Positions 6,801-38,300 of a stretch of DNA of 64,000 nt are shown in pieces (position 1 is the first letter of the stretch; every line of letters starts with the position of its first letter). A program made the translations under genes and the position numbers. Origin of the DNA: Euglena gracilis (lineage: Eukaryota). The stretch lies in contig CP154954.1 in NCBI GenBank assembly GCA_039621445.1, forward strand, positions 32,651,455 to 32,715,454, written 5' to 3'. The notes beneath the pieces were generated by a model. It made no database searches. It was given only the letters and a program-made list of their open reading frames with translations, and was not told where the DNA came from.

Positions 6801-9800
6801 TTTGGAGATCGCTTTTCAAACTTTCCTTTTCTGTGATGAGAAACCATGCGGGGAGCATGTCCTTGAACAACCCCCCCCAACAAAAGCCCCTGCAGCCAAC
6901 AGAGCACGCACCAAACACCTGCGGGGGTTGGCTTGGAGTGGAAGTACTTGGACGCGTCCGTCGCGGCGGCGGGGGAGGCGGCGGGCTGGATGGTCCGCAA
7001 CACACGGGGGCTGGCGGCCGCGGCGTCCGGCCGCGGCGTGCGCAGCGCGGCGCCGTCCCCGGGCAGCGTCCGCGGGGTGGCGGTCCGGGGCGTCTGGGTT
7101 GGGGCTGTGGGGGAGAGTGGGGGGGAGCAGCAGCCCTGCATGCGTCTGACACGGTCCCTGGGGCTTATTTTATTATTTTATCATTTTAGCCCAATAATTT
7201 CCTTTTGGAGATATTCTGAAATTTTCGATTTTTTTGACCCGGAAATGGCCAAATGGGTAGCAAAATGTGGCAGGGGATCCCTGTCCTGTCACATCACCTC
7301 ATCGTGGCACCAGGTTGAAGGGAGTGCGCCAGAAACACGGCAAAGGATGTGGCATTTGATTTTTTGGAAAAATTGATTCGGTGACGGTCAATCGAAATTA
7401 ATTGATCCATGCCCCTTATGACGGGGGTTTTCGGAATTTCGCGACCATCCTTGCCCCCCCCCCTATTTGCCCCCCCTATTAGCCCCCCCCCCTGATTGGC
7501 AAATTGTCGAGATGGGCCAATTTCAGCAAGACCGCGAAAAAGCTCAGAAAACCTCCAAAAAAGCTCGTTTCGAAAATTCAACTGCATCACAGAGGAATGA
7601 AGGGGACCGGCCAGCCAGTAAAACCTCCCCTAACAAGGGCGCAGTGCCCGAATAAGTGCGCACCCCCCAAGGGTCTGAAACTACCTCCCTAAAAATGTGC
7701 ACCCCCCCAAGGAGAAGTCGCTGTCACATCTCAGGTCTGAAAAGCACACACAACCTTCAGAACTGTCCTTCTCAGACCAAATACTCCTGTCATCATAATC
7801 GCTTGATTCATTGCTTGACATCACAAAATAGATGGAAAATTGAAAAGAGTGGGGGAATAGTCAGTATTTTCGGCTTTGCCCTAATAAGTGCGCACCGCTT
7901 GGGGTCCGAAACTACGTCCTTGAATGTGCGCACCCGTGCACTTATTAGGGGGGGCGGTTTCCAGGGGTTCCAGAGTTTCTGAATCTCTGACAGCACCGCG
8001 GGGGAAGTGCGGTGGCCATGTGCCAGGGACACTCGGGCTACGTTCAACGTGAGCAATCCACATTCGGATTCTGAACGGGGAACTGTCCTGGCTTGAGGGC
8101 GGTGCAAGAGGGCCGGGAACCTCACCCCTGCCCCTCCCCACTGATGGAACCATGTCCCTAAAACCTCCACAGTGAAAAAGAAAACAAAGGAGCTATCCCA
8201 GCGAGGCATATTGACAACGGGTGAAATGAAACGCCTCTCACTTCGTCGACGCATCGACAATCCGTCTCGGGCTCAAAAGGACGTTGACCCGTCAGATCCC
8301 GGATCGACTCCAGGTCACCCCTTGCTGGACATTTGGTCAAGAGACGATCCTGAGGGTCGGTACTCAGGACCAAAAAAAAAACAGCACAAAGACTTCCCGA
8401 TGCTGAGAGCACAGAATTATGCCGCCAACCCCCTGCCCACCAGCCAGGAACCGAACCGTTCTGCTTCAGAATCAAACCATCCAAACAGCAAAGCAAACAC
8501 ACAATTTCACATTACGGCGGAACCCAAAACGAAGTGCTATGCTTATGTCACGTAAAGCGCAGTCCCATCTGCTCACAAATGCTTGTTGAGAACTTGGAAC
8601 ACCCAGTTGCTCCATATTTGCAGTGGGAAAGTCGCTCAGAGCAATTGCGGATGGAGACTTTGAAGAATGGCCAAAGAGCAGAAGGAGTGCAACAAAGAAG
8701 AGAAAGGGGAGCACGGCAGAACAACGCACCGGTGGTCGCCCGCTGCGCCGCACTGGCCCCCCGCTCCACGCGCGGCTGGGACGCCGAGCGGTGTGGGAAC
8801 CGCGCCCGGCCGGAGTCCCTCGGGTCCAGCGCCCAGGCGGAGGGCGCAGGCTCCGTCGCTGAAGACATGGGACAGAAAGGCACCGAACACAACAGGATGG
8901 GGGGCCCAGCAGGCAGGGCAGTCCTTAAGCAGACAAAAAAAAACTCTGCTGCCAAAACATATTCAAATGAAAAATCATGCAAAACTCGTGCAAAAAAAAA
9001 TTGCAAAATCCACTGGAAAGATGGAGGAAAATGGCTGTACTTTGGCGAAAACGGGTCAACTTCGGGGTAAAAAGCGATGTCTGGCATCCTTGGACCAACA
9101 CCCCACCCACCCAAAAAGTCAAAACGTGTGTTTTTCGACTTTTTAAAAATTCGACCCTGTTCCAGCCCCAGAACCGCCCTTGGCCGGCCCTTGGGCCTCA
9201 AGGCGGTCCTTGAGGGGCGGTTCTTAACAGGGAAAAAAAGAAGATCCCGTCCCTTGTGGACCGCCATGCCAACGGGTGAGCAGCAGCCGTCGGATGCTGT
9301 GCAGGGTGGGATTCCTCGTAAACCCCCGAATAATAAAAGGTAGGGAAATGCATTGCAGAGAGCAAAGGGTTGTTCACTGAGTGGAAACTTCAGACAATTT
9401 CAGGCGTGCAATGTTGGAGGGGTGCTGCGTGAATAAAAAACCCACCACGCCAGTTCCCCGGCAACGCCGTTCCGTTCCGTTTCGCCAAACCCAATCCGTC
9501 CCGTCCCCCCCACCCCAGCGCCACCGGACGGGACAGCGGGCACCGCCACCCCCGCCACACCCGGCGGGGGCGGGCCGGGGCTGGGGGGCGGCGGCGGCGG
9601 CGGCGGCGGCGGTGGTGCGGTGCCGACAACGGTGGCGCCCTGCAGCCTGGGGTGGGGGTGGCCGATCTCGGCGGCGGTCACGGTGCCGCCGTGCGTCGCC
9701 TGCGGCCGGGGCGGCGGGGCCCCGCCCGCCGGCCCCCGCGGCGCCGGCGGGGGACTGACGGCGGCCGCATCGCCGCCGTCGGGGGCCGCCCGTGGCGACG

Positions 9801-12774
9801 CCCCACTGCGGACCGGGAGGGCAGCTTAAGGACCCCCCAGGGGGGTCCAGCTCAGAGGCGGAAAGTTTGGGTTGGCTGGAAAAAGGCTGGGTGACCCCCC
9901 CCTCCCCCATGGCGGCCCCAGGGCTGGAACTGGGCCCGACTGGGGGTCGAACCCGGTACCAAAAAAAAATCGAACCTGCAAAAACGTCCAAAAAAAACTG
10001 CCAATTAGGTTTAAAAAAAATCGATTTTTTGACCCCAAAATTAAATCCCCTGGACAGCTATTTTCCAACCCGTTTTCGCCCATTTTTGGCCCATTTTTGC
10101 CTGTCCTAAATCCGTTGCATAAATAAATATCCGTCAAATTCGTCAAACTCGTTGATGTGGGGGAGGGGGGGGCGAGGCTGGAATGGACCCCCCCTGGATG
10201 GTGGATCAAATTCTCGTAAGCAACAACGCCCTACTGGAGGGGCCCTGTCGTGGTGCCGGAATCACTGCATTCCTTTTCTTTTCTCTTTTTTTTTATCTTT
10301 CTCTCTTTCCTTTTGTTCCTACATCAACAGGGAATGTTAGAATGCTGAAAAAGCACCAAAAATGAATTTGCGTGAATTTGGAGAGGGTTCTTGTTGGGTT
10401 GATGGTTTGGGGAAATGGGGAAGCCCGCACATGGCTTGGCCAGGTGTTCAGGGGGGAGGGCTTAAAATTTCAGACGGCTCCTGCATTCACTCCCTTCACG
10501 CACTTCACTTCAGACAGCTCCTTCACTTCTCCACCTCAAACAATAGCTTGGTTTTTGCGCCCCCAAAAACCCAGGCCGTGTTAGGGTATACGCATCCCAA
10601 ACACCTGCCCACCCCCCAAATCGGCTTGGCTCACTCAGGGACGTAGCCTGATAATAAACCAGACCATTTCGTGATGGATCTGGATAGTTTTAGGGGAAAA
10701 AGCATTTGACCCCCCCCCGTTCACACGGTTGCATGCCAAATTCTGTGCCTTCCAATCGGGTGACATCCTGACGATGCATCAGTTTATGTGTCGATCAGTG
10801 TGGCATCGGCTGTCGGGGGGCAGGGGGACCCAGGGCAAGGGGTTGGGGGGCTGATGAACGTGCCGGACCAGTGGCTCGACGGAGACAGGGAAGCGGTCAG
10901 TGTCTGCGTTGACGTGGCTTTGGCATGAGGCTATCAACATTGTACGGCTGTCTCACTCTGGCATTTTAATGCCATCGTTTGATTGTGTGCAGTTGGGAAA
11001 ACTTCCAATTTATTTTGAACCCTGCTCCCTCTTCGATGGAGCAGAAAGACATATGTGGAAAAAAAACTAGAAAATAAGTGCGAAAGAAAAACACTCTAAA
11101 ATTTGCAAAAAAAACAGACTCTTTGATAACCACCACTTAGCAACTGGGAAGGTGCCATGGGAAAGGCAACACGACTGGAAAAAATCTGGCCCTTAGTGCT
11201 TGAAAAGGGACATGGAAAAATTAAACATTATGTCACCAAATAGTACGTCATGTGAAGGGTTTCTGGTAGCTCAAAATTTTCGGGAATAACCCAAATAAAA
11301 GCAGACGACCTTCAAAGGAAGCTAATCGTTAAAAAGATGGGTAAAACCTGGGAAATGCTCATACGCACAGCAACAAAAAAGTTTTCACCCACCAGTTTCA
11401 AAAGTGTTCATACCCCCAAAATGACGGGGATGTTTAATTCAAGTAGAATTTTGTGCCAACTCTGCAGTGATTCGTCCCACAAGTCAATGTCAATGGATGG
11501 GGATGGGGTGCAATGAGGCTCTGCAGTGCAAGATTCACGAGCCGCTGTTTGGGGTGTACCGCCGATTGTTTGGGGTCTGAAGGGGACGACCACGAAAAGA
11601 TTTGCAACCCAGGGAGAGCGGCAGCTGCAGAATTGCAGGAGTAATTTTCTGAACGCAAAATACATTGCTCACGTCCGATGGCGCGACACAAAGTAATGCT
11701 CCTGCAAATTTCGTCCAAGAGTGGCTTGTATTGACCCAATATGAGGTGGGAACCTGCCCAAAGGTCCCATATCTGTCAATCCGTCACGGAAAACAAAAGG
11801 CAACGGTAGAGAAGCAGGGAAAATAACAGTGGATGCAACTGAAGCAATCATTTTTTTGCATCTGCCTTCGATTTAGCCCCCCCCCCCAAACTTCCCACAC
11901 AATGTGGCATATTGCTTTTTTTTCAAGGTTCTAATTTGGGCAGATTCCCACCTCATATTGGGTCAATTCAAGCCACTCTTGGACGAAATTTGCAGGAGAA
12001 TTATTTTGTGTCGCTCCATCGGACGTGAGCAATGTATTCTGCGTTCAGAAAATTACTCCTGCAATTCTGCGGCTGCCGCTCTCCCTGGGTTGCGATCTTA
12101 TTGTGGTCATCCCCTTCAGACCCCAAACAATCGGCGGTACACCCCAAACAGCGGCTCGTGAATCTTGCACTGTAGAGCCTCATTGCACCCCATCCCCATC
12201 CACTGGCTTGTGGGATGTGTAACTGCACAGCTGGGACAAAATCTTATGTGAAATGAAACATCCCCGTCATTTTTGGGGGTATGAAGGCTTTTGAAACTGG
12301 TGGGTATGAAAACTATCGTTGCTGTGTGTACAGGGCTTAGACATGGGGTAGGGAAAATGGCTTGGCACTGGACCCTTTCACCCCAACCTGTAGACGGCTT
12401 CCACCGCATACCGTTGAACTTCCAACCAATATCACACATTGCCAGGTACGCTTCCCTGTGTGGGCCATGGGATGGCTGCAGTTGCAAAGGCTGGCCACTG
12501 CCTTCAGCATCCACTACAGGGTGCGATGCCCCCTGGACAAGGCGCTGCCGAAAAAAAAAAGACTGCTCCAAATGCTGTGTTATAACCATCAATATCGAAA
12601 AGAATATGGCTGCACATTGGTCCTACTGACAAACTAGGCGCAACAAAGAGTCAGAGAGGATGCCATCACGTCCCTTCACGTTTTGCTCTTGAGAGGCGCC
12701 CCCTGGTCGACGAGGCTTTGGGGCTCCACGGCCGCCGATGGGGATGGGGGAACCGTTCCTGCTTCTGCCAGCGC
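1655..12774 (-). CDS. Probable Pro/Ala/Arg-rich tail exons of the kinesin gene (or of a downstream gene)
   Basis: GC-rich islands flanked by YAG acceptors and GT donors, mostly phase-compatible: ~12774-12680, ~9805-9525, 8858-8730, ~7104-6948, ~5599-5443, ~5085-4909, ~4682-4564, ~2986-2868, ~1855-1655. The product is low complexity with no recognisable domain, and linkage to the kinesin is inferred. Confidence 0.5.
3737..3883. repeat. ~145-nt poly-C tract
   Basis: Near-pure C run whose length is probably unreliable. Confidence 0.9.
11360..12330. repeat. Long inverted repeat (~400-bp arms, ~170-bp spacer)
   Basis: ~11360-11762 is the reverse complement of ~11935-12330. The ORF track shows near-identical peptides on opposite strands. 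Confidence 0.92.
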
Positions 12775-14138
12775 CTGGTGAGGAAGCCACACGGAGACAG
12801 AGGACTGATGGTCAAATGGCCTCATGCCTCCAACAAAGGGGAAACCAACCGCTGGGACCAGGATTGCTGGGAACCCCGACTGTGAAAACCCACTAATGCC
12901 ACCGCGTCTTAACTCTCCCAAATAGAAGACAACAAAGCATTGGCTCTTGCAATTTGGGCCAGCGGTGGCCAACATTAGCCGCAGCAACAATGGCGGCGAC
13001 AACACCAACCAGAACAACCACAGCAACGGAGGCAGCATGCCTCCGACTCTTCCACCGTGTCATCGCCGCGGGGGTCCAGCAACGCCTCATCTGTGGCTCC
13101 CAGCCCTTCATCTCCCCCAGGAGCATCCAATCGCTTACGGGTGCTGCATTTTGAGAGTGACTGCCTGGCTTCTTGGCCTGTGTATGTCTTCCAGCAGATG
13201 ACGTATGGTTTTGTTGGAACGCTTCCCCCCACCCCTCCAACAAAGCGACTCGAAAATGAAGGCCATTTTGGCAGGGATTCTTCGAAGGTCCAATGTGTAT
13301 TGTAAAACCGCCCCAGCCGACTGGATTTGGGACGGGACCGAAAGCGATTGCATGCTCAGGGGGCTCACCACATCCGACTGCGACCTATGCAGGTTGGGGG
13401 AAACGCAGCAACTCTGAGACTGCTTTCATCAGCAGCAGTTGAGGTTAGTACTTCGTCCAAAAAAGGACAAATTAGGAATGTCCAGGGTCCAGACATGTTT
13501 GTTTTACCCCCCAAAAAACTCAAAATGCCGTTGTTTTTGTAGATTTTAGGAGTAAATTGTGGATGGGCACTTCGTGGCCAAAGCTGAATTCATTTGGTAT
13601 TCAACCAGACACCGTTTCAGGCAGTGGACCCCGGCAACTTCCTTTTCTGACAGGCTGGGCAGTGTCTGGGACACAACATCTGGCTACCCCTGGGGTCAAT
13701 TTTTGGGATCCAAATGCTTTTCAGTGCTTCGCGCCAAAGAAAAAGAGGAAACCCCCTTGAAAAGATGACGACGACACACATCAAGATCTCACTTTCAGGC
13801 AAAAAATTGATTTCGGGTTCGACAAAATTCTCATTCAATTTATGTTTGCTTCGGTTCAGAATGTGCCGACTTTATGCCGACATTTTCAGGGGTGCTTCTG
13901 CTTCACACAAGGGTGGCAGGATTTTGGGCCCTTTCTAAAGAAGGATTTAAAACTGGGGGGGTACCCACTTGGCCCAACCCTCCACCCCCGGAAGGGGGTC
14001 CAGCAGACCCACCCACCCTCCCCCCCCCCGAGGGGGTCCGACCTTTAAAAATCCCTGGTCCGAATTTGATCAACTGCTCAGCATATCCGGCCGCTGCCAC
14101 TGCCACTGCCACACCTCCGGCCTCAAGGTGTCCTGCAC

Positions 14139-14265
14139 CTGGCGTTGCTCCAGGGCGGCCCGCTCCGCCTCCAGCTGCCGCCTCCTGTAACCCGGCGGTC
14201 CCCGTCGCAAAGCACCCAGCGCCAAAATCAACACCAGCACACAGTGAGGTGACAAATGGGCCGGT

Positions 14266-14304
<39 letters not shown>

Positions 14305-17300
14305 CAAAACACACACACACACACACACAGCACACAGCACACACAGCACACACAGCACACACAGCACACACAGCACACACAGCACGCAGACACACAACAC
14401 ACACCCACACCCCCACACACCGGGCCTGGCACTCCTCCAGCTCCTGCCGCTCCTGGGCCTGCAGGGCGGCCAGGAGCGCCTCCCCCTCCGCCACCGCCGC
14501 CGCCTGCGGCCCCGCCGTCACCCCCGCCAGGCTGCGCCGCTGCAGCTGCAGCTCCAGCTGGACGGCGGCGATGGCCGCCGCCAGGCCCGGCCCACCCTGG
14601 AAGGAGGGAGCGTCCAGGACGGGCGCCACGGTCACGGTCGAGGCCGGGGTATGTTGCGGACAATTTCTGCCGGCGAATTGGCAGCCTCCAACCGGGGCCG
14701 TTGGGTTTGCGGAGGTTTTAGACATGACACATAACCCCCAGCCTACCACTCTGCCATCCCGTGTGCCACTCTGACGTTACGAAGCAGCGCAAAGCGCACA
14801 CCCGCACGGGGTTCACCACCTGCCGCGCCAGGCCGGCGGTGCGCAGCGTCGCGAGGGTCTCCTCGATGTCCGCGGCGGCGGGGGACACGGCGGCGAGGAC
14901 GGTCGTGGCGGTGCCGCCGCCCAGGGAGGGGAGCAGCAGCTGCGTCACGAGGGAGTCCCGGAACGGGCCATGCCCTGCGGGGAGACAAGGGGGCCCGGCG
15001 ACGCTTGGGCGGCGAGGAGGGTGGCGGAAGGCCCAGGCCGGGAGGCGTGATGGGGAAGAGGACAGCCGGAGGCGAACACCCCAACAAAGCAGGGCAGTCC
15101 TGAAGCAAGGAAAGAAAACTTCCCGTCCCAGCACATTCAATGGAATAATCCACAGGAATAATTGGTCCAAAAAAGGCGGTATTTCGGCAAAAACAGGTCG
15201 AGTTTGGGGGGAAATTTATGTCTGGCATCCTTGGGCCATCCCCCATCTGCCCAAAACGTCAAAAATGCAGTTTTCACTTTTTACACATAATTTGGACCCC
15301 CGTTCATCATTTTGGACCCCGGATCGGCCGTTAGCCTACCCTTGGGCGGTCCTCAAAGGACGGTCCTTAACAAGGAAAAATGAAACCCTGTCCCTTGAGG
15401 ACCACCCTACAAAAATGACAGGCCCTTGAAACCTGGGGGGAGCCCAGAGTGATGAAACGGTGGCAAAAAAAGTTTTGGCAGAGCAGCAAAATTTCAAAAC
15501 GCCAGAATCAAAGTGAATACCCCCCCACCAAAAAAGGCAATCCATTCAGCATTAATTTGACATTTCGATACGAATGAGTCTTCAAAGTTTCGAAATTTGC
15601 ACCCAAAGCATTCCATGTGGAGGCACCACACCCTGACCACCAACGAGCCCGGCAATGACCCGTCCAAACACCGCCATCGACTTGTTCAGGAATGGGGCCT
15701 CCGTGGACCCAGACCCCTCCGTTCGACCTCTGACCTGCGGCGCATTCCAGCAATCCAGCACAGCACAGGGGCAACCAGGGAGGGCAACAGGGTAACGGGG
15801 CAGGTCAGGGTGCTCTGCATGTGCACCCTCGCAGAAATCCTCGAATTTCTACCCCTATTTAGGTTGGACGCACATATCCAGATCCAAACCCGAGGTGCCA
15901 AAGCATCGACCGTTTGACATTCCCCATTAAGCGTTGCGTTGGAAGGGTGGTGATTCTCAAACCCCTGCCATGTCTGAAAGCCAACTGCAAAACAGCAGGG
16001 GGAGGAATGAGACCCGCTCGCTGCCCGCCAGTTCCACAAGGTTCACGCGGCTGGTGTGGGTTCGCCGGATGTCTTTCCCACAGACAGAGCCCAAGAGCTC
16101 CTCCTGAGGTTGGCAGAAGGCATTCCTGAGATTTGTTAGTCACAGGTTTGCAGACTGAAATACAGAGAGCAAACTGTGGCATTGTTTCAAGCATCTCCGA
16201 CATTCCTTCTGTTCTCATCAACTGTTTCGGTCCTCCTGTTTAAACTGTTCAGAGGGCAGATCACATTGGTCTCCTGCATCCAAGGTTGTGATGCACACTT
16301 GCAGGTTCAACGTTTCCCCCAGCTCAAATGTGCACAGACATCCCTCCCACCACAGAGCACCGCATCCCACAGCACACTCTCTGCACATTCAGTTGCACGA
16401 TGAAGGTGGACCGAGCGGCCATCTCGGTCGCGGTGCGCTGCGCCTGTCCCCGCTCCAGGAAATGCAGCGCCTGCCGCCACGTCCTAAGCAGGCGACCCCA
16501 TGAAACGCGGAGCCGCTCTGAGCAATGTCCAAATAAAAGCGCACTCCCGGCCACCGAAGGCGGCGGTGCACTACACTGCACTGCACTACAAGGACAGCCC
16601 CGTTTTTATGGCGGTTCTGAAGGAAATCAACAAAAATCAACCAGGCGGGGTCCAACTAGAAGAATGGGCCTCTATTTTGGAGGGCTCAACAAGGAACAAG
16701 GAACACCCCCCCAACACCCAAGGCCACGAGAGGGGTCGGCGGGGGTGAGGACCTGACCACCCTCGGGGTCAGACCCTTCAACACCGGCCCGTGCTTCGGG
16801 TCGTTCACGAGGCGAAACGTCTTGACCTCGCTGGTGGGGGTCCGGCCCAGGCCTTTGCCAGCCTGGTCAGCCGGGCAGTCCAGCAGGTCCCGGGCCCTGG
16901 GGAGGAAGGCTTGTGGCTTGGAAGAAAGGGTCCACACATACCGCGATGGAAAATGCTTTTTGGTTCCTTTGTCTGTGCGAAAGCGAAATAAATGCAACAA
17001 GAACCTCAAAAAAAAAACACATAAAAACAACAGCAGCAGCAGCAGCAGCAGCAACAACAACCCGTAAAGCATAAACTTTGATATGATGAGTTCTGCACTT
17101 TTTGGAGTTTCCTATTTCCAGTTCTTGATTCCAAAAATCGTCAATTTATTTTGAAATGCGGAAATGTAGAAAAACTGACAAAATCAGGTGGAAAAGTGGG
17201 ATAAAACGTAATAAAATTACCTAAATGGAAGCCTACTCTTGCATACCTCGAACCCTTGATGGTTAGGAGCTCGCCCTTCCCTTCACGTATACCTCTCGTT

Positions 17301-19112
17301 GCAGATCTCCAAGTAGGCCATCGACACGGAGAAGGTCCCCCGCCTTCCCTCCACCGCAGAGGCAGCGGAGGGGGTGGTGGGGCAGGAGGAGGAGGCCCCG
17401 TCAGGCAGAGCCACCCGACGGCTTTGGGACGGCCCCGGCACGGCACAGGGGGCGGTGGGGGGGGGGGGGGACGAGCCGTTGGGTGGCCGAGATCGAGGCG
17501 AAGAGGTCCTTCAGCAGGCGGGGGACCAGGCCGGGGGCGTCGGGCGTGCCCATCATCGTGTACGTCTTCCCGGCGCCGCTGGGGCCTGGCAGGGGGAGGG
17601 GGGGTGGAACAGGGCAGGGAAGCGACGCAGACGCCATGGGTTGTTTGCTTCGACTCCGAGTCGCCGAGGAGGCTGCTTGCGCGGAGCCACAAACGAAGGG
17701 TAAGCCTGATCACCCCTGGGGGGGGGGGGCTGATCATAGGACTTGCTGGTAGCCCCCCCCCCATGTCCAACAACCGGTAACCTCTGTCCTCAAAAAAAAA
17801 AACAGCACAACAAAACCGGAGGGTACCCGGGAACTCCCCCTTCAAAACAGTCAAAATTTCGCTTCCAGCACTTTGCGCCTTGGTAACCTTAACTCAATTT
17901 TTGGTCCAAAAAAGTGTCCAAAGTGACATTTTTGGCCGATTTTGGGCAGCAAATTTTTTTCGGCCCAGTGATTTGTGGCGGGCTAAAATTTTTGGCCAAA
18001 CCTCCAAAAACGCGTCCTCCGACCGGGGGGGGGGGGTGGTCATGGGACATAGGGGGTCGTTGGATGTGGGGGGGGGGGATTCACCAAGCAAGGAAAGTTC
18101 CGGAATCCGGAACAAACTTTTTGATTGGTTGGAAGCTCCAGACCGTGGAGGGGCAAACGGCAGGGACTTCACCGGTGGGTATTGCACACCGTAGGCCAGC
18201 ACGCTGGCGCTGAAGCCGTCCAGGGCCAGGGCCAACGCCCGGGCCCCCACCTCGCGATACACGTCCGCCTGGTCGCCGCCCGGGCCCAGCACGCCGTCGA
18301 CCAGGAACCGCCGGGGCGGGGCTGGGCGGGCCGGGGGGCCGGCGCAGAGCACGACGTCGGAGAGGAAGGCCACGGGGGACGGGGAGGACGGGGGGCACGC
18401 CGCTGTCGGGCGGTGGGGGGGGGGGGTTAGCCCGGCGGGCCGGCGCAGTATGAAGTCGCGCGCCGCAATTCCGCCGGCGATCCATCGCGACGGTTTGAAC
18501 CCGACCGGAGCGACGTGTTCAACGCCTGGCTGATTCCAGGGCAGGACGCTCCAGCGGCAGGGCGACCCTATGAAGACGCAACCTGCCCTGGGGGGGGGGG
18601 GGTGTGCAATTGGTGGGGTTTGGTCGAGAGTTTGCCTTGGCCTGTTGTGCTGCCTGTGAATGCTGCACTGCAAGTCTGTAAAAAGAAAGGAGGACGAAAC
18701 CTGGTCTTTTCTCAGGTTCAGGCAACTTGGCACCTGCTCCGTGGCACTTTGGCCATTTGTCCCATGGGGGGGGGGAGGAAGGGGTAAAACCCCCAAACAC
18801 ACACACACACACACCGTCTTTGTGTTTGGGCAGGATTTCCAGACCCTCAGGGGGCTTTATATTTTGGGGGCTGAGGGTGCAAGGCAAACCACGCAACGCT
18901 TTCTTTTAAACCTGCCCCCCCCCACTTATAGCCCCCATCCCATAACACCCCCCAAAGTATAACCCCCCAACAAACCATTGCAGCAGCGTGGCCGAAGCGG
19001 TGTCTGCGTCCGGGGTGGCGGTGGGTCGGATGCGGACGACCACCCGGATGTGGTCTCGGAAGCCTCGGGCCCCGCAGGCAGGGGGGGCCCCTTGCCGGAC
19101 AGCAGCCTCCAT
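14139..19112 (-). CDS. Kinesin family protein: motor domain and neck/coil exons (spliced, GT-AG introns)
   Basis: Hand-spliced exons ~19112-18976, 18567-18524, 18402-18190, 17585-17293, 16896-16753, 16483-~16376, ~16125-16014, 15734-15632, 14974-14800, 14666-14421, 14184-14139. They give the ordered kinesin motifs IRVVVRIRP, FLVDGVLG..Q.DVY, AYG|PSGAGKTYTM (P-loop), SMAYLEICNER|ARDLL, NLVELAGSER, LNKSM..FGRVI, PFRDSLVTQLL, EETLATLR. Intron phases match at GT/AG sites. One 1-nt frameshift lies at a G14 run (17457-17470). Confidence 0.93.
14268..14420. repeat. (CA)n / (CACACAGCA)n microsatellite in a kinesin intron; others at 4766-4840, 25170-25205 (GAA)n, 29376-29418 (8-mer cggtaact) and 61641-61680 (GT)n
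   Basis: Direct reading of the sequence. Confidence 0.9.
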
Positions 19113-26300: not shown

Positions 26301-29300
26301 TAAAAAAAAAGCTGTTCACGCATATTCAATCAAAAACCTCAAACCGAAGGGAAATGGGCGAAATTTATTCGCAGCAAAAACAGGTGATTAGGTCCTTGAC
26401 ATATTATGGCAGAGCTTGTCAGAATTTTACGGCGAATATACAAGAGGGGAGAGGTGAGGGATGCCCAGAAACAGCGAAATGCCTGATGTGGGGTGGACCC
26501 CCCCACTCCCCCACCAGGATGGGGTGAAGGGAGTGGTCGTCCCCCTCCCCACCCACCACAGCAAGGTTTGCAAAATTCGAGCTGAAAATGAAGTCACAAA
26601 CTCTCGGCAAAAACAAGCTAATTCCAGGGGAAACTGATTTCTGGCATCGCTGGAAAAATTTTCTGTCGGACACTCGAAAAAATGGGGTTTCCAACTGTTT
26701 CGATTCTGACCCCCATTCTATCCTGGGATGGCCCTTGGGACATCCCTCAAAAAATCGACGCCTTGAAATTTTGAAAATGCCTGTAAAAACCTTAACCGGG
26801 TCGGTAAAATGAGCCCCCATCAACCCCCCAAAGAAGTATGGGAGCGCTCAATGCAATCTGCCGCCTCAGATGGCGCTTCTATTTTGATCCCGCCTGGAAG
26901 ATTTTTGTTGATATTCTTCAGAAAGCCCAGCAAAGTGGAGACTGCCCGACCAGGTGCTCCACCGACCATTATGGTCCGGGCCTACCGAACAGACTTCTTC
27001 TTGAGACCCCCACCGGGTTGGGTTTCGGCGCAAAGCGCCGAAATTTTTTGGGAAATGCCCTCAGACGGCCCGATTTTGTCCCCCCCCCCCGGGGTCCAGC
27101 GCTGGGCTGGGTGGGTTGGGGACCCCCCCTCCAGCCTGGGACCCCCTAGGGGGGGGTCCGGTCCCAGACCCACCCACCCACCCCGGGGGGGGGGGGGGCT
27201 GCTGGCTTAAAAAAAAAAAGCCTGCTACCGACCTCTATGGCTTTCCAATAAAGTTAATTCAATATTCTTGTGGAACATGAAGAAGGCCCATTTTTAGCAA
27301 AGAATGCACCTCTGGGTGCACCTGTGCAAATAGGTTGGACCATGCAGCCGCCCAGAGCTTCTGTTGGGGGGGGGGGGGGGAGTTGGGATCTGAAAATTGG
27401 TCCGTTGGGTTGCTCATTGAACCGGTTTAAACAGATACATATGTGGCCGGCAGGCGGGTAGCAGGGGGGCCCCCCCCCGGGGGGGGGGGCCTGCTACCCA
27501 CGACCCTGCACCTGCCAACATGGCCATTAGCGCAACATGGCCATTAGCGCACCTAACCCTACTCCTTCAATTAACCCCATAATAGCGCAACATGGCCATG
27601 TTGCACAACATGGCCATGTTGCGCAATATGGCCATGTTGCGCTATTATGGGGTTAATTGAAGGAGTAGGGTTAGGTGCGCTAATGGCAGGTGCAGGGTCG
27701 TGGGTAGCAGGGGGGCCCCCCCCGGGGGGGGGGCCCTGCTACCCGCCTGCCATGTTGCCTTGTACAAAAACAACTGCAATGCCATCTCCACACCCAGAAG
27801 ACGTTGTTGCACAATCTTTGGTGCGGGCGCAGTGACTTCAAGGCGGTGCAGATTATTCAGCAGAAAAAGCGGCGGTGTCTCCCCGCCCCTCCAGTGCCAC
27901 CTGGGCAGCCACTCCAGTGACGGGGAGGCGCCCAACGCAGCCAGCTCCTTCGGCGCACCTTCCCCCAGCTGGTTCGTGCCAGTGGCCCACCCCGGTCCTA
28001 CACCCGCCAGGCTGAATTTCATTAAGCTCGTCTCGGGGTTACTTCGGGCGGTACTAACCCCCCACCCGAGTTGTGCCTGGTCGTGAGGAAAAATTTCCCC
28101 CAAAATGACATTTTCCGGCCTTCGAACCCCCCTCCCGAGGACTGACTTCAGCTATAAGTAATAACACCCCCTCCGACAGATGAAAGCAAAGAAAAAAGAG
28201 AATAGAATGAGCGGGAATGTTGCAAAAATCACAAAAAGGGATGGTTTGGTGCAGAAAATATGTCGAAAAGAGTGCAAAAAAAAAAGACAAAATATTGATG
28301 ATTAGAACCTATTGAAACGCTTTTGGGTCGATTCTTGACTTCAAAACTGTTGCCCTGATAATAACCTCCAAATATCACCCCTCCCCGGGACCCTGACTTC
28401 GAGTGTCCAAAAAATAACTGGGGGGATTTTGTTTGGGGGGTTCATGTGCCCACCCTCCATCCTGGCCGCAGTAGGGTTTATCATTAGCAAGTGTGATGAT
28501 CACCTATCAATGGTATTACAAAGCGAAGAAGGCGCCCCAGGGCAGACAAAGCCCTCAGATCTGACCCCCACCCTGGGTTTGACATTAAACCAGGTTTTGA
28601 GTAGTGCTGAGCTCTTAAAGGGACATGCATGTGATGGAATGCCGAAAAGACTAGCATTGCAAAGTTCGCGTAATTTATAATTTACAAATTACACTCTTTC
28701 AATTTACGGTGACTTTCAGTGATTTTACGGAACTTTCTGAAATGACAATGATAATCCCCCCCATACACCCCATACCCGTTTTATAGGATTTTTTGACTTT
28801 TTTACCCATTTTAGAGCCAAACTCCATGGGTTTCGGGCCCAAAACGGGGCGCAGGGTCGAAAAACGCTCATTTTTGGCTGAGAAACAGGTTTTCCGGGTC
28901 CGGGAGGCCAAAAAGAATCGTTTCGAACAAAAAAAAATTCGATTTTTTCCGACTTCTTTGACCCGTTCCTGGCCAAACTGCATGGGTTTCGTGCAAACAA
29001 AAAAAACAGGGCGCTGGCGGGTCGAAAAACGCTCATTTTCGGCTCAGAAACAGTTTTTCCGGGTCCGGGAGGCCAAAAAACATTGTTTCAGGCAAATTTG
29101 ACCAAAAATGACCGAAAACGGCCAAGTCACATCAGGCCAAAACTGTACAAAACGGCCAAAATCGGCCAAAAAAATGACCGTAACTCGAGCTAGGCGGGGA
29201 GTTGCGGGGAAATCAAAATACTGTTAGATAGGGCATTTTAAGGGCTTCAATTTAGGTCTCCAGACATTTCCTTTGATTTTGCTTCATTTTTGAGATATCT

Positions 29301-32300
29301 TAAAACATCGATTTTTTGACCCCGAAAACAGCCCAAATGGCCCCTGAAATGGGCCAAAATTGGCCGAAAAATGGCTAACTCGGTAACTCGGTAACTCGGT
29401 AACTCGGTAACTCGGTAACGGAAAATGGTAACTCGGGCTACACGAAGAATTGGGGGAAAAATAAACCATTCCAAGGGCTTCAATTTTGCAGTCCGGACAT
29501 TTTCTTTGATTTTGATTCATTGTCGAGATATTTTGGAAAAACCGATTTTTTGACCCTAAAACGACCCAAAAAACCCCCCCCCAAAAATGGCCGTTTTGGG
29601 CCGCAAAAGCGCGCCGGAACACGGGCCAGGCGTGCCAGCGGCCAAAACGGCGAACGGGGGCGATAGAGGGCCTCCGGGGGTGCATTTCGTCAGACCCACA
29701 TTTCCGGAAATAATGTACGTTTTCTCGAGATATTTTCAAAAAATAGATTTTTTGACCGATTTTTGGACCCCAGCAAAATGGCAAAGTCGGAAGAGAGGGG
29801 GGGGGGGGGGCGGGCCGCCTCCACCTTCTGAACAGTGGCTGAATTACAGACCCCAATCATTATCTGGTGCACATTAAAGTCCTGCCAGAGGGGAATGAGA
29901 GTCTGCGGCCTTTTATCGGCATCGTCCTCAGTCCGGCCCCCCTCGCCCATGAATGAGGGGGAGGGAGGGACCTCCTAAACCCCCCCACCTCTAACCCCTG
30001 GGGGGTTGTAGGTGGGGGGTCGCTTGAGCTCTTATCTCTTTATGGGTAAGAGCGAAGCTTACCCCTGGGTCCAACCCCCCCCCCTCCCCTCGGGCCACCT
30101 TGGGAACCGACTGATTATCACCATGATCCTGGCCCGGTTCCCGGAATTTTTTTTTTCAGTCGCGAGCGACTGGATTTCTAGTTTCCGAATGGCAGCCCGA
30201 AACTACTGGGCCCCCCCGGGGGGGGGGGCCAGTAGTTAATCCGGGGGGTCAGAATAGTTTTTTTGTGTTAATGATGGAATAGGGTCAGGTGCGCGACTTA
30301 GGCTTAGGGTTAGGCCTAATTTATAGACGGGTGTTCGGTGTACAAGTTAGGCCTAACCCTAAGCCTAAGTCGCGCACCTAACCCTATTCCATCACTAACG
30401 CAAAAAAATTTTTGACCCCCCGGATTAACTACTGGGCCCCCCCCCCGGGGGGGGCCCAGTAGTTTCGGGCTGCCTTCCGAATCACCTTCGTTTGACCCCC
30501 AACTCCCCGTCAGGCCCGAGTTATTCACGCACGAAGGCTATGAAAGGGGGTTCCACCCTGTATCTGGAACATCCTTAGCCAGGCCTTGATTGTTTTCCTC
30601 CACACGGCCATATGGGTTCGGAGCACTGGCCGAGGCCCAGCTGGAGCACCACCGTCTGCAACTGACGCATCTCCCGCAGCTGCGCCAGCCAACAAACCCC
30701 ATCGGGCCCAGGGGACAGGTTGGAGCATTGGTGACGGAATACCAGTGGGGTCGTCGCCACGGGGAGTGCCCGTATGATTGGACAGGGGGAGTGCCGACGA
30801 ATCTAAATGAATAATTTGGTTTGATATCCAAGGGTTGATATTGGCAGCTTTTTACCCAGGAGGCCAGGCCCACTAGTGTGGGATACGGTTAGGGTTACGA
30901 TTTGGCCCAAAAGTAGACCCAATTTTGTCCTCCACAGTGGGAAAAGGGCAGCTCTATGGATCAGGCTCTGAATGAGCGAGTTGCACAACAGGGGTTTCCC
31001 AAAATTTCAGATTTTCACAACGGGTTTTCACCAAATTCTCTTGCGTGTCCACTGCAAAAACAAGTCATGATCAAAACCATCACTTCAACGTCAAACAATC
31101 GTCGTCATTGATTGGCGGAAACAATGATAGCCATGGCCACTGCCCTCTGCCCGCGGCGGAGCTGGTTCTGGTTCAGGTTGAGGGCCAGAGAGCGCAGGGA
31201 CGTGGAGGCCCGGAGGCCGGCGAGGGCCTCGGCGCCGTCCGGCCCGAGGTGGTTGCCGGACAGGTCCAGGCGGAGGGTGTGGAGGAGCGGTGCCTGCGCC
31301 AGCAGCCCGGCGGGGGCGGCCTCCCGCCTGCGGCAGTGGGGCCCATCGGGGACCTGGCCGGCGAGGGGGGGGGGCACACCAACCCGAGGGCCCAAACTGA
31401 TCAATGGCCCGCCTGTCGCGGCCATTGAAACGCCGCCACTGTACAAACAGAGCTGGAAGTTGGAAAGTCACAGCGGTCACACACGGGGCACGGATCCCTC
31501 GTTCGGGTGTGGCAGAGGCCGCCCCCCTCGCCAGCGCCGCCGCCCCGCCGGGGCCGATGTGGGCCCGGGCGGCGTCGAGGGACAGGGTGCCGAGGCGGGC
31601 GGCGGTGCGCAGCCCCGCCAGCGCTGCCAGCCCGCCGTCCCCGATGGGGTTGCGGCCCAGGTTCAGGTGCCGCCAGGGCCGCGGCCGGTGGGTCGCCGGC
31701 AACACCTGGCACAACACTCGGCCGCAATCGACAAGGTCTGGCGAGTGGACCGAGGCGGAGGGGCCTCCAGGCAGGGATCATCATTTTTCAAACGCGCCAA
31801 AACCTTAAAATGTTTTTAAATGCAGCTTAAAAATATGGGCAGAATTTTTCTCCGATTGAATGAAACAAAAATGAAAGCACAAAATCTCGACAAAAACAGG
31901 CCAGCTCCGGGGAAAAAATGATGATTTCTGGCATTAAAAAAATAAATAAAAGTATGTTTTTGATTTTTTGATTTTGGACCTCGTGCAAAATCAAAAATGT
32001 TGGTTCGATGCCCACACAGCCCTTGAACAGCCCTGAAAAATGGCTCCTTTAAACGCCTTAATGGACAGGGCTGAAAAAATGCCTCCTTAAAGCGCCTTAA
32101 AAGTCTTTAAAGCCTTAAAGTGCCATAAAAGCCTTAAAAAATGCCGTAAATTTTTGAGAAAAAAAATTCCCTTAAAAAATGCCTGGCTCCCGGGCTCTTT
32201 TTCAACGACCCCCATGGGTGCCTTGTGCTGTAGGTGCCAAACCCCCCCAAGGGTTGTGACCTTCTTAAGAAGCGTGGTTGCTCCCCCTTTCTTTTTATTT

Positions 32301-35300
32301 CCCATGCCCTGTGGACTGGGGGTGCCGGGGCGGGCCCGGGGGCCGCCGCCGGCCCTGGCCGCAGCGTGTGCAGTGCCGGGGCCGCCCCCAGTCCAGCCAG
32401 CGCCTGGGCCCCCGCCACGCGCAAGGGGGTTCCCGTCCAGCGGGCTGGGATTGCCGGTGGAGGGGGAGGGTGGGGGCTCTGGCAGCGCCGGGCACCCCGC
32501 TGGCCGGGCCGATGTCGGTTTTGTACACGTCCAGCGACAGCCACTGGAGGCCCGGCATGTGGGCGAGGCTCCGGCCCGCCGACCTGCCTGGATTCGGTGC
32601 CCCCCCCCACCACCTCGGGATTGGGACATAAACGGGATGCCACCACTCCCTTCCGCTGGCTCTTGTTCACTCTCACAAACTCTGGAGCATTTTCTTTGTC
32701 CAAGGACCCAAGCCCATTGAAGTAGAACGAAAAGGGTGGCTGGAAACCTGCCTTTCAACAGAAATCTGCCGATGCCAAGCTCAACTCAAACCTCAGCAGA
32801 AGAATGCAAATGATCAATGAACCAAGAGGGAAATGGGGGGGGAATAACTGATATCGGAGGCCCTCAGAGAAATTGAAGGAAAAAACTGATATCAGGAATG
32901 TTCACATTTCTGCTGGAAGGACACGATTCTGAGCTACACCCTGAATAGAAGTAACTAAAAATCACGTACACCTGCAAATTTTTTCAACTGCTCCAGAAAT
33001 TTTGGAACATTGGTTGGCATTTTTTTCAACAAAATATTACAAAATTATACTTCTTCTTATTTTGGAAACATGCTGCTTCCACAACATATGCAATTTGTTG
33101 GCCCCAAAAAAATCAAAAAATGACAAAATTTGCCAAAAAATTTCGTCTTGGGATAAATCTGGTCCAAAATTGAAGGCAAAATTATTTACCAACAGAACTT
33201 AAAGGAAAAAAAAAGAATTGCCGAATTGGCCGGCCTTGCCGGGTTTTGACAAAAATTTGCCAAGATTTGGAGAAAATGTAAACACATACGAAAAAGGTAC
33301 TTGTGTTACCCCTTCGTTTTTATATCATCCGTGGAATGGCCGGAACTCATTGATGCGATAAATTTTGCAAAGCAAAAAAATTGGAGAATTTGCAGGAAAT
33401 TGCGGGAATTGAGGCAAAATGCAGGAAACCGAGGGGAAACTGCTGAAAATTGTGGGAAGATTGCAGAAAATTGCGGAAAATTGCAAAAATAAAAAAAAGT
33501 GGATCAATTGGCTGTCCATTATTCCCCTAGGGAGGAGGAATTTTCAGGAAAAGTTTTACAAATTTAAATATCAGTCCTTTGTGACGCTTTTCTCTGCACC
33601 TTCAACATTTCCCAATGCTTTTGATACCCCCCCCAAGGAATGGAAAATACAACGCCACCAGGCACCCAAAGGCAGCTTTATGGCAAACCACTTCAAGGGA
33701 GACCACAGGGAGGGCGGCGGCCGCCAGGGCAGAGGCCCCGATGTCCCCAATCTCGTTGTGGGAGAGGTCGAGGCCAGGCTTTTTTTTTACCAACCCCGGG
33801 GGGGGGGGGCTCGGAGTGCCTTGGAGTGCCTGCCCAGGCAGGCACCCCCCTCCCCGGGGTGGGGTCGGCACCACCTTAAAAAACAGCCTGGTCGAGGCAC
33901 AGCCGAGCGAGGCCCGCGTGGCGCTGGAGTCCAGCCAGCTCCGCCGCCCCGAGCGGCCCCACCCGATTGTTGTGGAGGTCGAGCATCGGCGGCAGCGCCC
34001 TTTGCGAGGTCCGGCATTGGAGCGGACGGCGGTCGCAGTGAGGCAAAGTTCTCCCAACTGGATGAGGATTCTATTTTTAAGCGCCCGGGGGGAGGGCGGT
34101 CCCCCCCCCACCCAGCCGGGCACAGGACCCCCCCCCCCCGGGACAGCGGGGACTATCCCCAAAAACGGACTCTCTGAAGGCATTTCCCAAAAAAAAAAAC
34201 CTTCCAGCGCTTCGCGCTGAAACCCGGACCTCCAGGGGTTCGGCCCGTCTGGGGCCGAACCCCCCACCCCGGAAGGAGGTTGGGCCCCAGCCCCCCCCCC
34301 CCTGTGGGGGTCTTCTGAGCTAAAAAGAAGCTGGTTCAGATATCAGGAGATGACAGGCCCGGGTACCCCCTCTTTGTCCAAGGATGTTGTTGTTACACAT
34401 CATTGTTCCAAGAACGTGTTGTTGACACAGGGGAGGGCAACAACTTGCCGTGTGAACGGCACAGCATTTCAACGGAAATGCCAGGTGGCATTCCGAAAGT
34501 GCGCTTTGGCACAGTTTCAACGACACTTGTGCAAGAGAGGCTGCCCTTACCTAACCCCCCCAAATATAAAGCCCCCCCCTTCACATTTGGGCGGGATCTC
34601 AAGACCCTCAAGGGGGACTTTATATTTGGGGTGGGGAGTTTAAAATTGGGGGGATCGACTGTTTCTGGGTGGCCCATCCTGACTTTGGCAGCCTTCAACC
34701 ACAGTCAAGTGCCAAAATTATACCAAATTTTCATTGTGTACCTCAAATTTACCTCAGAATTTGCAATTTTTGTCCAAAATGGAGAATTTCTGGTGGGAAA
34801 TTGTTACATCCACCCATCTGTTTTCCCTGATCGGCGGGTGTCACATTGGGGAGGGCTTTATATTCGGGCAAAACCAAACCTCCTGGGGAGGTTTATATTT
34901 GGGGGGCTTTATACTACCCCCCCCCCCCCACTGGCCGTGCCATATGGGCCAGGGTGGCAAACGCCTGGCACACGAGAGGTGTGAAGGACAGTGGGCAGGG
35001 TGGACAACCCACGACAGGCTGAGAGTTGGCAGTGAGTGAGCACTCCATAATGGGAATGACCAAGAGCACATGAATAGCCTGAAACAGCTGAATCCAGCGA
35101 CAGATGACGTTTTTTTTTTGAATTTCAACTGCCTTTTTTAAACGATTGGACCGTTCTGAGTTCGCGCAACATCACTACTGTCTTGGAAATCTAGTTGCAT
35201 GCCAAAGATATAGACGTGGTTGACAATTTGACACAGTGAACACAATAGAACGAATGCAGTGGCTGGAACGGAGGAAGGCCCTCCAAAGCCAATCAAAAAA

Positions 35301-38300
35301 GGATGATAATAATAAAAAGGTGAAAAAAAACTCTTATAGCCGTGTTATCAGCACCTATTTTTTTAAGAAACGGGTGACAAGAAGTCATTCCAGTGTGATG
35401 GCCAGTATGGGCCTTCTTCATTGTAGATGGAAACTGTGGTTCCCCCCAATGCAATTCATCAATATCATTTAGTTGTTGGACTGCAGGTTTTTGGCTAATA
35501 AAGTTCACCCTGGCAGGATTGTCACTTGTTGTACTTTGGCACCATCTGCACCTTGCCTGTTGGCACCTCTGCGAAAAGAAGAGGTGCCAAGAGGTGCCAA
35601 ACAAGGTTCGTTCCAAATAAAACTGTCCTGGGAAAGCGTTATGGGGACGTTGCGTTACGGTGCTTCCCATTGCATAAACCACTCCACATGGTGGAGAGCC
35701 CAATCAAACCAGCCAAGGCAGTAGCACCCTTGTCCCCCACGGCGTTGTCAGAAAGGTCAAGCGCCAGAACACGAAGGGATGCGGGGTGGGACCTCTGCCG
35801 GTTGGAATGCACGCCAGCCCCCCCATTTCCCAGCCATACCCATAGGGGTTCAAGGATTCCCGTCCAGTTCTGGGGTCCAGACCCCTGCCAAGCCTTCAAT
35901 GCAGGGATTTCTTAAAGACCAGGATGGAGGGAGGGAGGGGTCCCCCCACCCACCCCTGCCAGAAGGCTCCCAAACACACATGCAAAGTGTATGTGCCGTG
36001 TGCTATGGAGACACCTGCCGTTGTGCACACTCACTGCAATGTATTTAGATGATTACACCGGCATTTCACCCGTGTCGCCCAAAGGTTGCTTAAATGTTGC
36101 TGCTGCTTAACTTTGGAGGGGTTGTTTAAATTTGGAGGGGTAACCCACCCTGGAGGTTCCAGCAGACCAACTCACCCCACACCCCCCAGGTCCAAACATT
36201 AAAAAAATTCTGTCTAAATGAGGGGTTACATGGAAAACAAAAAACCCAGAACTTGTTTGAGTACCTTTTCTTTCCCAGAAAAAAGAACATTTTTGTGGTC
36301 TTGAAACAATTTTGGTTTTCAAAAAAAATAGGGGTTGAACCCTAATTCTGATGGAATTCTGAAGAAAATTGACAGAAGGGCCCAAAGACGTGTGCCCCCG
36401 CTTTCCGCACATCCGTGCTGAAATTTGGGGGGTTTACAATGCAATTCCCGGACACTCTTTCCTCGAGTCCTCCTCCACACCACAACTAATTCAAGGGCTG
36501 TTTCCATGGTGCTTTCACGTCAGACATACCTACTGCAAAGGCTTCAAAATTAAAAAACCCTTTCTAGAATTTCTCCAAACTGTCCCCTCACATGAGGATC
36601 GCCACCATTTGAATCCCGGGGCAAAGGCTCAATTTTGGTGTTTTTGGCCTGACCTAAATTCTTCCAAGTTTTGTTTCCCCTGCGTTCCGCCCAAGAAATG
36701 TAAAACCTTAATGCTGTCCCACACATTTCCTGTCAGGCTCCATGGTATGGTCAATATTCCCTTGGATTCCAGTGTGGCCAACTGCCCTCTCCACTGGAGT
36801 AGTGACTGAAGTAGTGACTGACCGGACTGGCTGGTTTTGGAAATGACCCTGGTGGTCGGTGCTGGACCCCACCTGCAAAACATGGCTGCCTCTTTGAGAG
36901 AGGTAATTGCGCAGTTGCATTAATGATCCTTTCAAATGATGAATTTGCACACGTTGGGCAAATGGGACGAGATACGGCTGAAATGCGAGATCGGCTGCCA
37001 AAGCTAACTTCGCTGGAAAAGGCAGCTGACTGGCTGGACACCCCTGTGGGCAGTGTCCAAGCGAGGCCAGGCTCCCATGCTGCTTGTGATTGGGATTTGC
37101 TGTTGAAATGTGATGCATCAAAGCAGGGTCAGAAGATAAATTGGCAGAGACCAAAACAGAATCTTTGAGGCGTGCCAATGCAACGGCACCATCCGACGTC
37201 ACTTGGTTGTCCCACAAGTTCAAGCAGAGGCAGGGGCGAGGTTTGCAGTTGGGCTACCTCCGTATTTTTTTTAATCCATTCCTTGTGACATTCAATTCCT
37301 TGTGCACTGGACAAGAATTACAGAAAATATACACAGGATGACCCGGGGGGTCAGTGTTATCTGATGTGCTTGGCATACTTTCGCGTGCTTGGGACACACA
37401 AGGGTGCAGGGGGGGGGATAGATATCAGAGTCTTTCGGAAAAACTGCGTAAAAATTGCAGGAAATTTTTAAATGTGTTTTTGAGAATTAGTGCACTTCTC
37501 CTGGAAGTGGGGGTTGGAAAAAACCTCACAAATTTGCTCATTTTGCAACACAGGTGTATCTTTTGAGCCGTTATTCACATTCCAACAAAAAGGTCTAAAA
37601 ACTTGATTTTTGTAATTTGGAACATGCTCGTTCGGGAAACATGGAATTTCTTGGTGAAAAAGCCAAAACTGGCAAAAAGTTGCCGAAAACTTTGGTCTCG
37701 GGTAAAATCTGGTCAGGTGAGCAGAATTATTTCCCAGCAGAAATTGGGGGAAAACCTAAAAAAGACCCAGAATTTTGTCAAGTTTTATAATATTTTTGGC
37801 AACTTTTGGCAAATTTGCAACAAAATGACAAAAAAGCACCTGGTTCCCTTGTGAAACGTTCAGGAATGGCCGGAACTCATTTCGCCTTCCATTTCAGGTT
37901 CATGCGAGAAAAAAAGCTCAAAGGGAAAAAAATGCAGAAAAATTGCAGGAAGTTATGGAAAATTGCGAAAATTGCGGAAAAATTGCGGATATCAATTTCA
38001 CCCCCGAGGCGGACAAACTGCCTTGACCCCACCCCTGGAGCATACCACCCACCCCTACAAATGGTGTGCTCCCACTCCTCCAAGGGCAGCCCTGGACCTA
38101 TCAGCCCCGTCCGTGGAGCCCCGGCCCTGGGCACAGGGTGTGCAGGGAGGCGGCCCGCTGCAGCAGCGCGAGCGCCTCCGCCCCGGCACTCTCGATCTTG
38201 TTCTTGTGGAGGTGCAGGGTGAGGGACGTGAGGGACGCGCAGGTGAGCACACAGTGAGGCTGCCACTGGACTTCCATTCTCCATCTGTGAGTGAACGCAT

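Follow-up and report, generated by a model that had tools for sequence, protein, structure and literature searches.

A miniature transposon as a candidate nonconventional intron in a leucine-rich repeat gene of Euglena gracilis

Introduction

The origin of the nonconventional introns of euglenids, and of the 3-nt and 5-nt spacers at their ends, is a question that has been standing since the 1990s. Here we ask what one locus in the nuclear DNA of Euglena gracilis can contribute to an answer. The locus lies in a stretch of 64,000 nt (contig CP154954.1 of assembly GCA_039621445.1, forward-strand positions 32,651,455 to 32,715,454; the whole stretch is hereafter called the window, and all positions are counted within it). 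In this window a 116-bp MITE (miniature inverted-repeat transposable element) interrupts an exon of a leucine-rich repeat (LRR) gene. The locus provides a concrete young example, a candidate intron in which a transposon copy and its target duplication can still be recognised. We estimate at roughly 70% the probability that the insert is a non-autonomous MITE in an LRR exon which is removed as a nonconventional intron, its duplication being hAT-like and its family unproven.

An element with target duplication interrupts an LRR exon

The first-pass annotation, made from the letters of the window, had described an element of 116 bp, bounded by CAGGCT inverted ends and flanked by a perfect target-site duplication of 8 bp, inside a minus-strand LRR exon, and we found the element exactly as described. 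The features of the locus are the following:

33767-33774, plus strand: left copy of the 8-bp target-site duplication GTCGAGGC, a direct repeat in the sequence
33775-33890, no strand assigned: MITE body, 116 bp, with CAGGCT...AGCCTG ends, 66% G+C and without coding capacity
33891-33898, plus strand: right copy of the 8-bp target-site duplication GTCGAGGC, a direct repeat in the sequence
33894-33987, minus strand: upstream LRR exon (MLDLHNNRVG...ARLCL); 5' limit provisional, the intron above it unplaced
33692-33769, minus strand: downstream LRR exon (DLSHNEIGDIGASALAAAAL...); 3' limit provisional, possible GT donor after ...SLE
33770-33893, minus strand: predicted nonconventional intron, 124 nt, GAC-CAG...CTG-GCCTC and then exon G, from the sequence fit to the code of PMC12501133
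63553-63614, minus strand: truncated relative of the element (its right half), 78% identity over 72 nt by sequence comparison

Within the element 12 of the first 14 bases match between the two ends, and the match rises to 13/14 when one flanking base per side is included (arms 33774-33787 and 33878-33891). The exact direct repeat is 9 nt rather than 8 nt long (33766-33774 and 33890-33898), because the last G of the element itself equals the base preceding the left copy. The element thus combines all the attributes of a MITE, being short and non-coding, with inverted ends, a target duplication and several copies. Ten reads of RNA run X24 leave it at 33872 for other flanking sequence, which is what transcription of one more copy of the element should produce. 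Rfam matches amounted to zero.

The host is a minus-strand RNI-type LRR gene whose repeat motifs extend from about 38217 to 22386. A Pfam LRR_6 match was obtained for the open reading frame (ORF) at 31094-31777 with an E value of 8e-5, slightly below the curated cut-off. Reads and contigs mapped over 22000-41900 (RNA reads X21 and X24, RNA contigs X15, DNA contigs X12) showed that the gene is transcribed at a low level, with an RNA depth of about 0.3-4 and 12 reads of run X21 at 35730, and that it is spliced, since record 9 of the RNA contigs X15 joins 31282-31152, 25513-25401 and 23707-23575. With the insert retained, the upstream frame would read ...LCLDQAVF and reach a stop four codons inside the element.

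The insert agrees with the code of nonconventional introns

Knock-in experiments in E. gracilis have indicated that nonconventional introns require the signature N3-CDG...CH'G-N5-6, a purine directly after it, and paired ends; the 5' spacer is strictly 3 nt, while 5-6 nt are tolerated in the 3' spacer (PMC12501133). Inserts of 50 bp that were entirely synthetic but carried these features and 12 bp of pairing were spliced like wild type, and the "slidable" nonconventional introns amounted to 69.1% (PMC12501133). Nonconventional introns are further described as being released as circular RNA and removed later than conventional introns (review PMC11282704).

Read on the minus strand, the insert starts with an N3 spacer followed by a CDG motif (GAC-CAG, 33893-33888) and finishes with CTG-GCCTC (33777-33770), in which the middle base of the motif is complementary and the spacer measures 5 nt. 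The first downstream exon base, at 33769, is a G and thereby a purine, and of the 12 positions on the inner side of CAG, 10 pair with their counterparts ahead of CTG. In the predicted RNA fold the element is closed by a CCAGGCU/AGCCUGG stem, with a minimum free energy of -76.2 kcal/mol (z -2.75). Ten equivalent cut registers exist, all of which give the identical mRNA.

Cuts placed 3 nt ahead of CAG and 5 nt beyond CTG, as worked out in the first-pass annotation, do take away 124 nt, namely the element and exactly one duplicate. They join ...ARLCL to DLSHNEIG... in a single open LRR frame. The repeat period is restored too: with 124 nt gone, the distance between the conserved Asn codons falls from 211 to 87 nt, which is also the spacing in an uninterrupted neighbouring repeat (31269 to 31182). 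The wider claim that a MITE acts here as a nonconventional intron stands with regard to every sequence feature of the code and the restored frame, whereas removal was not seen in RNA.

From these features we infer that the repeat arose by transposition and that the insert is spliced, in the following manner. A 116-bp non-autonomous DNA transposon would have entered the nuclear DNA at a Leu|Asp position of an RNI-type LRR exon and duplicated 8 bp of target. In the minus-strand pre-mRNA the inverted ends would pair, so that the first cut would fall 3 nt ahead of CAG and the second 5 nt beyond CTG. As pairing of the ends places CAG and CTG according to N3-CDG...CH'G-N5-6|purine, the element and one duplicate would be expected to be removed, by a machinery that according to the literature is probably not the spliceosome. 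The 3+5 = 8 flanking nucleotides lost with the element would correspond to one duplicate, and the mRNA present before the insertion would be regained without a scar.

Flank identity in other introns of the LRR gene

Since 3 and 5 add up to 8, an inserted element is taken out under the code along with exactly one 8-bp duplicate, and we asked whether this was confined to a single locus. Four further introns of the LRR gene were placed by the 87-nt repeat period combined with the code, and their flank identity was taken as the agreement between the 8 nt preceding the 5' motif and the 8 nt following the 3' motif:

37226-38132, minus strand: nonconventional intron, 907 nt, GCC-CAG...CTG-CCTCT|G, flank identity 6/8; placed by LRR period of 87 nt and code
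24077-25404, minus strand: nonconventional intron, 1328 nt, TGC-CGG...CTG-GCCGC|T, flank identity 6/8; placed by period, code and record 9 of X15
23712-24013, minus strand: nonconventional intron, 302 nt, GGG-CAG...CTG-CGCGT|G, flank identity 7/8, ends 11/14, internal tandem repeats; placed by period and code
22421-23157, minus strand: nonconventional intron, 737 nt, CCT-CAG...CTG-GTGGC|C, flank identity 8/8 (AGGGCCAC on the plus strand); placed by period and code

Together with the MITE insert, these five introns showed in-register identities of 6, 8, 6, 7 and 8, i.e. 35/40, in a set that is partly selected since three of the five were first spotted via their duplication or inverted ends. The introns at 38132-37226 and 25404-24077 were found without any use of flank identity. 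When the register was shifted by -4 to +4 in the same five introns the identity was 10-13/40, and in 20 cross-intron pairings it averaged 2.55 with a maximum of 5. Among random CDG...CHG pairs from 22000-38500, the frequency of at least 6/8 was 0.0077. Several introns of the gene were unplaceable and stayed outside all counts, and the candidate at 31545-31326 (CGG...CCG, 5/8) was excluded as ambiguous. Record 9 of X15 contains 63 nt between the pieces ending at 25401 and starting at 23707, which equals the exon 24076-24014 of our model with 4-nt slides at both joints; as this middle piece is absent from the listed alignments, the support for the introns at 25404-24077 and 24013-23712 is arithmetic and not a joint read-out.

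Within the same gene, the intron following exon 23707-23575 (23199-23574, minus strand) starts with CGC-CAG as in the code; no CTG-N5 acceptor in it fits the LRR period, and its presumed borders are 9 nt and 2 nt away from a GCTGCC/GGCAGC stem. Arrays of a 10-bp unit (AAATTGCGGG-like) were observed in two introns of the LRR gene, at 33378-33490 and 37928-37987.

Related elements in the window and superfamily assignment

Three other MITEs were found in the window:

48398-48845, no strand assigned: 432-bp MITE (48406-48837), perfect 8-bp duplication CTGATACC, ends matching at 13/14 and related to those of the LRR element
55641-55949, no strand assigned: 293-bp MITE (55649-55941), perfect 8-bp duplication ATTGGGTG, ends CAGGG(G/A)TTTTTTTAAG matching at 13/14
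43007-43338, no strand assigned: 316-bp MITE (43015-43330), 7/8 duplication, ends CAGGCTT...AAGG matching at 12/14

These three and the LRR element have an end consensus of CAGG(C/G), a T-rich part and AAGG in common, over some 14-17 shared nucleotides. Excision of the three restored no convincing coding frame or long LRR-like frame, and they look like copies outside exons.

We screened the window for CAG...CTG pairs at a distance of 40-3000 bp whose ends were complementary at 9 or more of 12 positions. Among the 850 pairs, a perfect flanking repeat in the 8-nt register was present in three as opposed to about 0.013 expected, while the 9- to 12-nt registers gave none and the 6- and 7-nt registers one each. 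The other 63 terminal trinucleotides yielded 13 perfect repeats in 79,542 pairs, a rate 22-fold lower than that of CAG. Two variants of the test were less informative. When inverted repeats were ignored the result was unconvincing (CAG 7/57,998 pairs vs ~2.7 from the window average, with several trinucleotides equal), and a contiguous-stem variant with one mismatch allowed was not discriminating (CAG 3 at k=8, GGC...GCC 4). The MITE end motif occurred 14 times vs 3.97+-1.99 expected, a count reached in 0/100 shuffles. Single or unpaired matches to the motif CAGGSNTTTTTTNAAG were located at 13272-14057, 26299-26314, 32170-32185, 35902-35917, 39837-39852, 45605-45620 and 52269-52284; they may be the ends of decayed or longer elements.

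Ends of hAT elements often begin with CA(G/A). Members of this superfamily are described as having short inverted ends of 10-25 bp and an 8-bp target duplication (PMC3942097), and the elements reported here resemble hAT MITEs in both respects, with the ~14-17 nt consensus in four elements and an enrichment limited to the 8-nt register. Unlike hAT MITEs they are G+C-rich (59-69%) and not A+T-rich, and no link to a transposase was found. The hAT-type label of the first-pass annotation agrees with the 8-bp duplication and the short CAG ends. The Pfam scan recovered no transposase among 10 ORFs scanned out of 45 ORFs of at least 170 aa. The family might alternatively belong to another superfamily with 8-bp duplications such as Merlin: two Merlin families with duplications of this length occur in E. 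gracilis (PMC8101967), and our literature search found no report of hAT elements in Euglena. We regard this as unlikely, given that all Merlin families, including those of E. gracilis, begin with GG (PMC8101967), whereas all four clear MITEs of the window carry CAGG directly beside the duplication. Because short ends and an 8-bp duplication fit hAT and the GG start of Merlin is absent, the superfamily is likely, although not proven, to be hAT as judged from duplication length and end sequence.

Comparison with a kinesin gene

A second gene of the window encodes a kinesin. A 102-aa ORF (17404-17709) showed 97% identity to the eukprot sequence EG_transcript_7892 (kinesin, 578 aa), whose gene comprises 17 exons on the minus strand at 19112..9786. 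The 13 tblastn pieces listed were 87-100% identical, and the other kinesin exons were placed by peptide matches. These matches identify the window as nuclear DNA of E. gracilis or of a very close relative. Ten of its 16 introns are of the GT/GC-AG type, two fit the code, one carries CAC...GTG, and three fit nothing. The CAC...GTG intron (17407-17488, minus strand, 82 nt, GGC-CAC...GTG-GCTCT|G) has the N3/N5 geometry with 8/12 of the next positions paired; its motif pair is not listed in the published code as given in the consulted part of PMC12501133. Sliding distances were 1-2 nt in the six kinesin introns that are not GT-AG vs 3-9 nt in the LRR gene. A TG/TGTGC microsatellite with long Cys-Val ORFs in several frames occupies 14070-14330 in an intron of this gene.

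Counter-evidence and alternative explanations

Besides the partly selected intron set and the arithmetic transcript support mentioned above, and the outcome of the transposase scan, several observations weigh against removal of the insert or against the generality of its register. None of the 15 joints listed, out of 291, was the junction predicted at the insert, and all of these came from DNA-run repeats. The 64-aa ORF of the upstream exon had no match among 46 candidates in the protein collection (longer proteins), and exon 31108-31467 retrieved only paralogues there (best EG_transcript_6474, 44%), its own transcript not being found. In the kinesin gene flank identity was 5/8 and 2/8 for the code-fitting introns and 2/8 for the CAC...GTG intron, so the duplication signal is not general. 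Such low values would be as expected from the decayed intronic half of an old duplication and equally fit an older, transposon-independent code. The proposed 3+5=8 register thus held in the five LRR-gene introns and was weak in the kinesin gene; support for the argument comes from one gene, and it is not contradicted elsewhere. A pyrimidine (T or C) follows N5 in 2/5 LRR-gene introns, and because of this the purine rule is a preference. The original claim that any such insertion, in either orientation, would be removed seamlessly went too far in view of these introns and of the published purine preference. Finally, the pair 33993-34829 was considered as a second example and rejected as a drawn intron, with a stop in the LRR frame three codons above. 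This 837-bp CAG...CTG stretch directly adjoins the beginning of the upstream LRR exon and is flanked by a perfect 8-bp repeat (ATCGGCGG, 33985-34837); an element nested at an older intron's end is one possible reading of it, chance another.

The MITE could be a recent, unspliced and gene-breaking insertion, with this LRR copy or allele giving a truncated protein or a decayed mRNA. The lack of the predicted junction among the listed joints and the stop encountered on retention would fit such a view. The perfect duplication and the 12/14 ends suggest a young insertion, perhaps not yet tested by selection, in a gene family that is large and probably redundant, the best database relative being the 44% paralogue. 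We nevertheless consider it improbable. The insert carries the four tested requirements of the code, which by themselves are enough for synthetic inserts to be spliced like wild type in E. gracilis (PMC12501133); the gene is transcribed and spliced elsewhere, as seen from record 9 of X15 and the X21 reads at 35730; and four other introns of like anatomy preserve the LRR frame. A further explanation would attribute the 8-nt repeats to double-strand-break repair or microhomology at intron gain and not to a transposase, with CAG/CTG ends that exist for splicing only. Break repair is how the eight-nucleotide repeat of a new intron was read by Milanowski et al. 2016 (PMC4770533). The absence of a transposase from the scanned ORFs is compatible with it, as is the intron at 23157-22421, which has an 8/8 repeat yet weak inverted ends (5/14). 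For the present locus, however, we judge it very improbable. Elements that share the end consensus and likewise have 8-bp duplications are found where excision restores no reading frame, and for this reason splicing cannot have shaped them. The 8-nt register alone was enriched (three perfect repeats vs none at 9-12 nt), a fixed length that marks a transposase stagger, and the element in the LRR exon has relatives elsewhere.

If the insert is a spliced MITE-intron, as we prefer, the relation 3+5 = 8 may be viewed in two ways. Tentatively, and at somewhat less than even odds, we propose that nonconventional splicing is an RNA-level undoing of the integration of one transposon family, in which the 3/5 ruler reflects the 8-bp stagger of the transposase of CAGG elements. 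This would account for the otherwise arbitrary 3/5 asymmetry, and it predicts a peak of sliding distances at 8. It would further mean that exonic insertions are silent from the moment they occur, in both orientations provided that a purine stands at position 6 of the duplicate, and that the nonconventional introns, which make up roughly 70% of Euglena introns, are in large part decayed copies of such elements. The other view, which is possible but which we find rather doubtful, treats the relation as a filter: the N3/N5 ruler would be older than these transposons and independent of them, and out of many insertions only those of a CAG-ended family with 8-bp duplications would happen to leave no scar and hence survive in exons. 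Consistent with a filter are the kinesin introns without a repeat, the 38.8% of E. agilis nonconventional introns that lie outside the signature, and a 3' spacer of 5-6 nt that is looser than exact undoing requires (PMC12501133). On the other hand, loss of the repeat is to be expected in old introns. Of its 16 positions, 8 lie within the intron and can drift freely, and for this reason a missing repeat does not discriminate between the two views. The strictness of the 3-nt 5' spacer (PMC12501133) also speaks against a mere filter.

Relation to known systems

A MITE origin of euglenid nonconventional introns has already been proposed (Milanowski et al. 2014, PMC3935182), and CAG/CTG inverted ends at +4..+6 and -8..-6 as well as repeats resembling target-site duplications are already contained in a review (PMC11282704). 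The splicing machinery as a mitigator of transposon insertions was proposed in the Discussion of PMC12501133 (Nomura et al. 2025). Two statements of the first-pass annotation are accordingly found in print, namely that a transposon origin had been suggested before (PMC3935182, PMC11282704, PMC12501133) and that splicing may provide transposon tolerance (PMC12501133). The published code was derived without slidable introns, and the origin of the introns is called unclear there (PMC12501133). Our literature search, which covered full texts with supplements outside it, returned no statement that N3 and N5 add up to the 8-bp duplication of a hAT-like family, and no nonconventional intron shown as a copy of a dispersed element family.

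With the euglenid nonconventional introns the insert shares CAG at +4..+6, CTG at -8..-6, paired ends, an exon purine, borders that are not GT-AG, and slidability resulting from repeats. It differs from the published ones in that it can be seen to be a copy from a dispersed MITE family and still has its 8-bp duplication intact. We therefore interpret the locus as an unusually clear case of a euglenid nonconventional intron of MITE origin, which is a known kind; this interpretation is partly supported. A published counterpart is intron 4 of gapC in E. agilis ACOI 323, a strain-specific gain that is likewise a nonconventional intron flanked by eight-nucleotide direct repeats (PMC4770533). In contrast to the LRR insert it was read as a trace of break repair, and the consulted part of that article describes no repeat family or element with inverted ends.

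Parallels exist outside euglenids. In SOS splicing, known from C. elegans and human cells, pairing of transposon inverted ends also triggers excision from mRNA independently of GU-AG and buffers exonic insertions (PMC12779559). AKAP17A, CAAP1 and RTCB are its factors, and Euglena is not mentioned in the consulted part of that source (PMC12779559). SOS splicing uses many cut sites and leaves indels, with a subset of products in frame (PMC12779559), whereas the Euglena code is a fixed 3/5-nt ruler. Provided that the register argument holds, Euglena would possess a precise system of transposon tolerance as its counterpart to SOS splicing in animals, which is imprecise. Introners of Micromonas, dinoflagellates and others are similar in that MITE-like transposons become introns at insertion and contribute their duplication to a splice signal, but they are spliceosomal, with GT/GC-AG borders recruited from the element and from a duplication of 3-5 nt (PMC11282704). 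The LRR insert has non-canonical borders instead, and the flank removed with it is a whole 8-bp duplicate.

Further sequence features of the window

The region 28640-30631 reached a word depth of up to about 790,000 in the DNA run vs ~40-60 in single-copy bins and showed many rearranged joints; it is a very abundant dispersed or satellite repeat. A tandem array with a 161-bp unit (3.3 copies, 87% matches) was found at 43761-44292. Long G or C homopolymer runs are present at 3737-3883 and many other sites, and palindromes of a C-run and a G-run (CCCCGGGGTGGGG type) occur in many elements.

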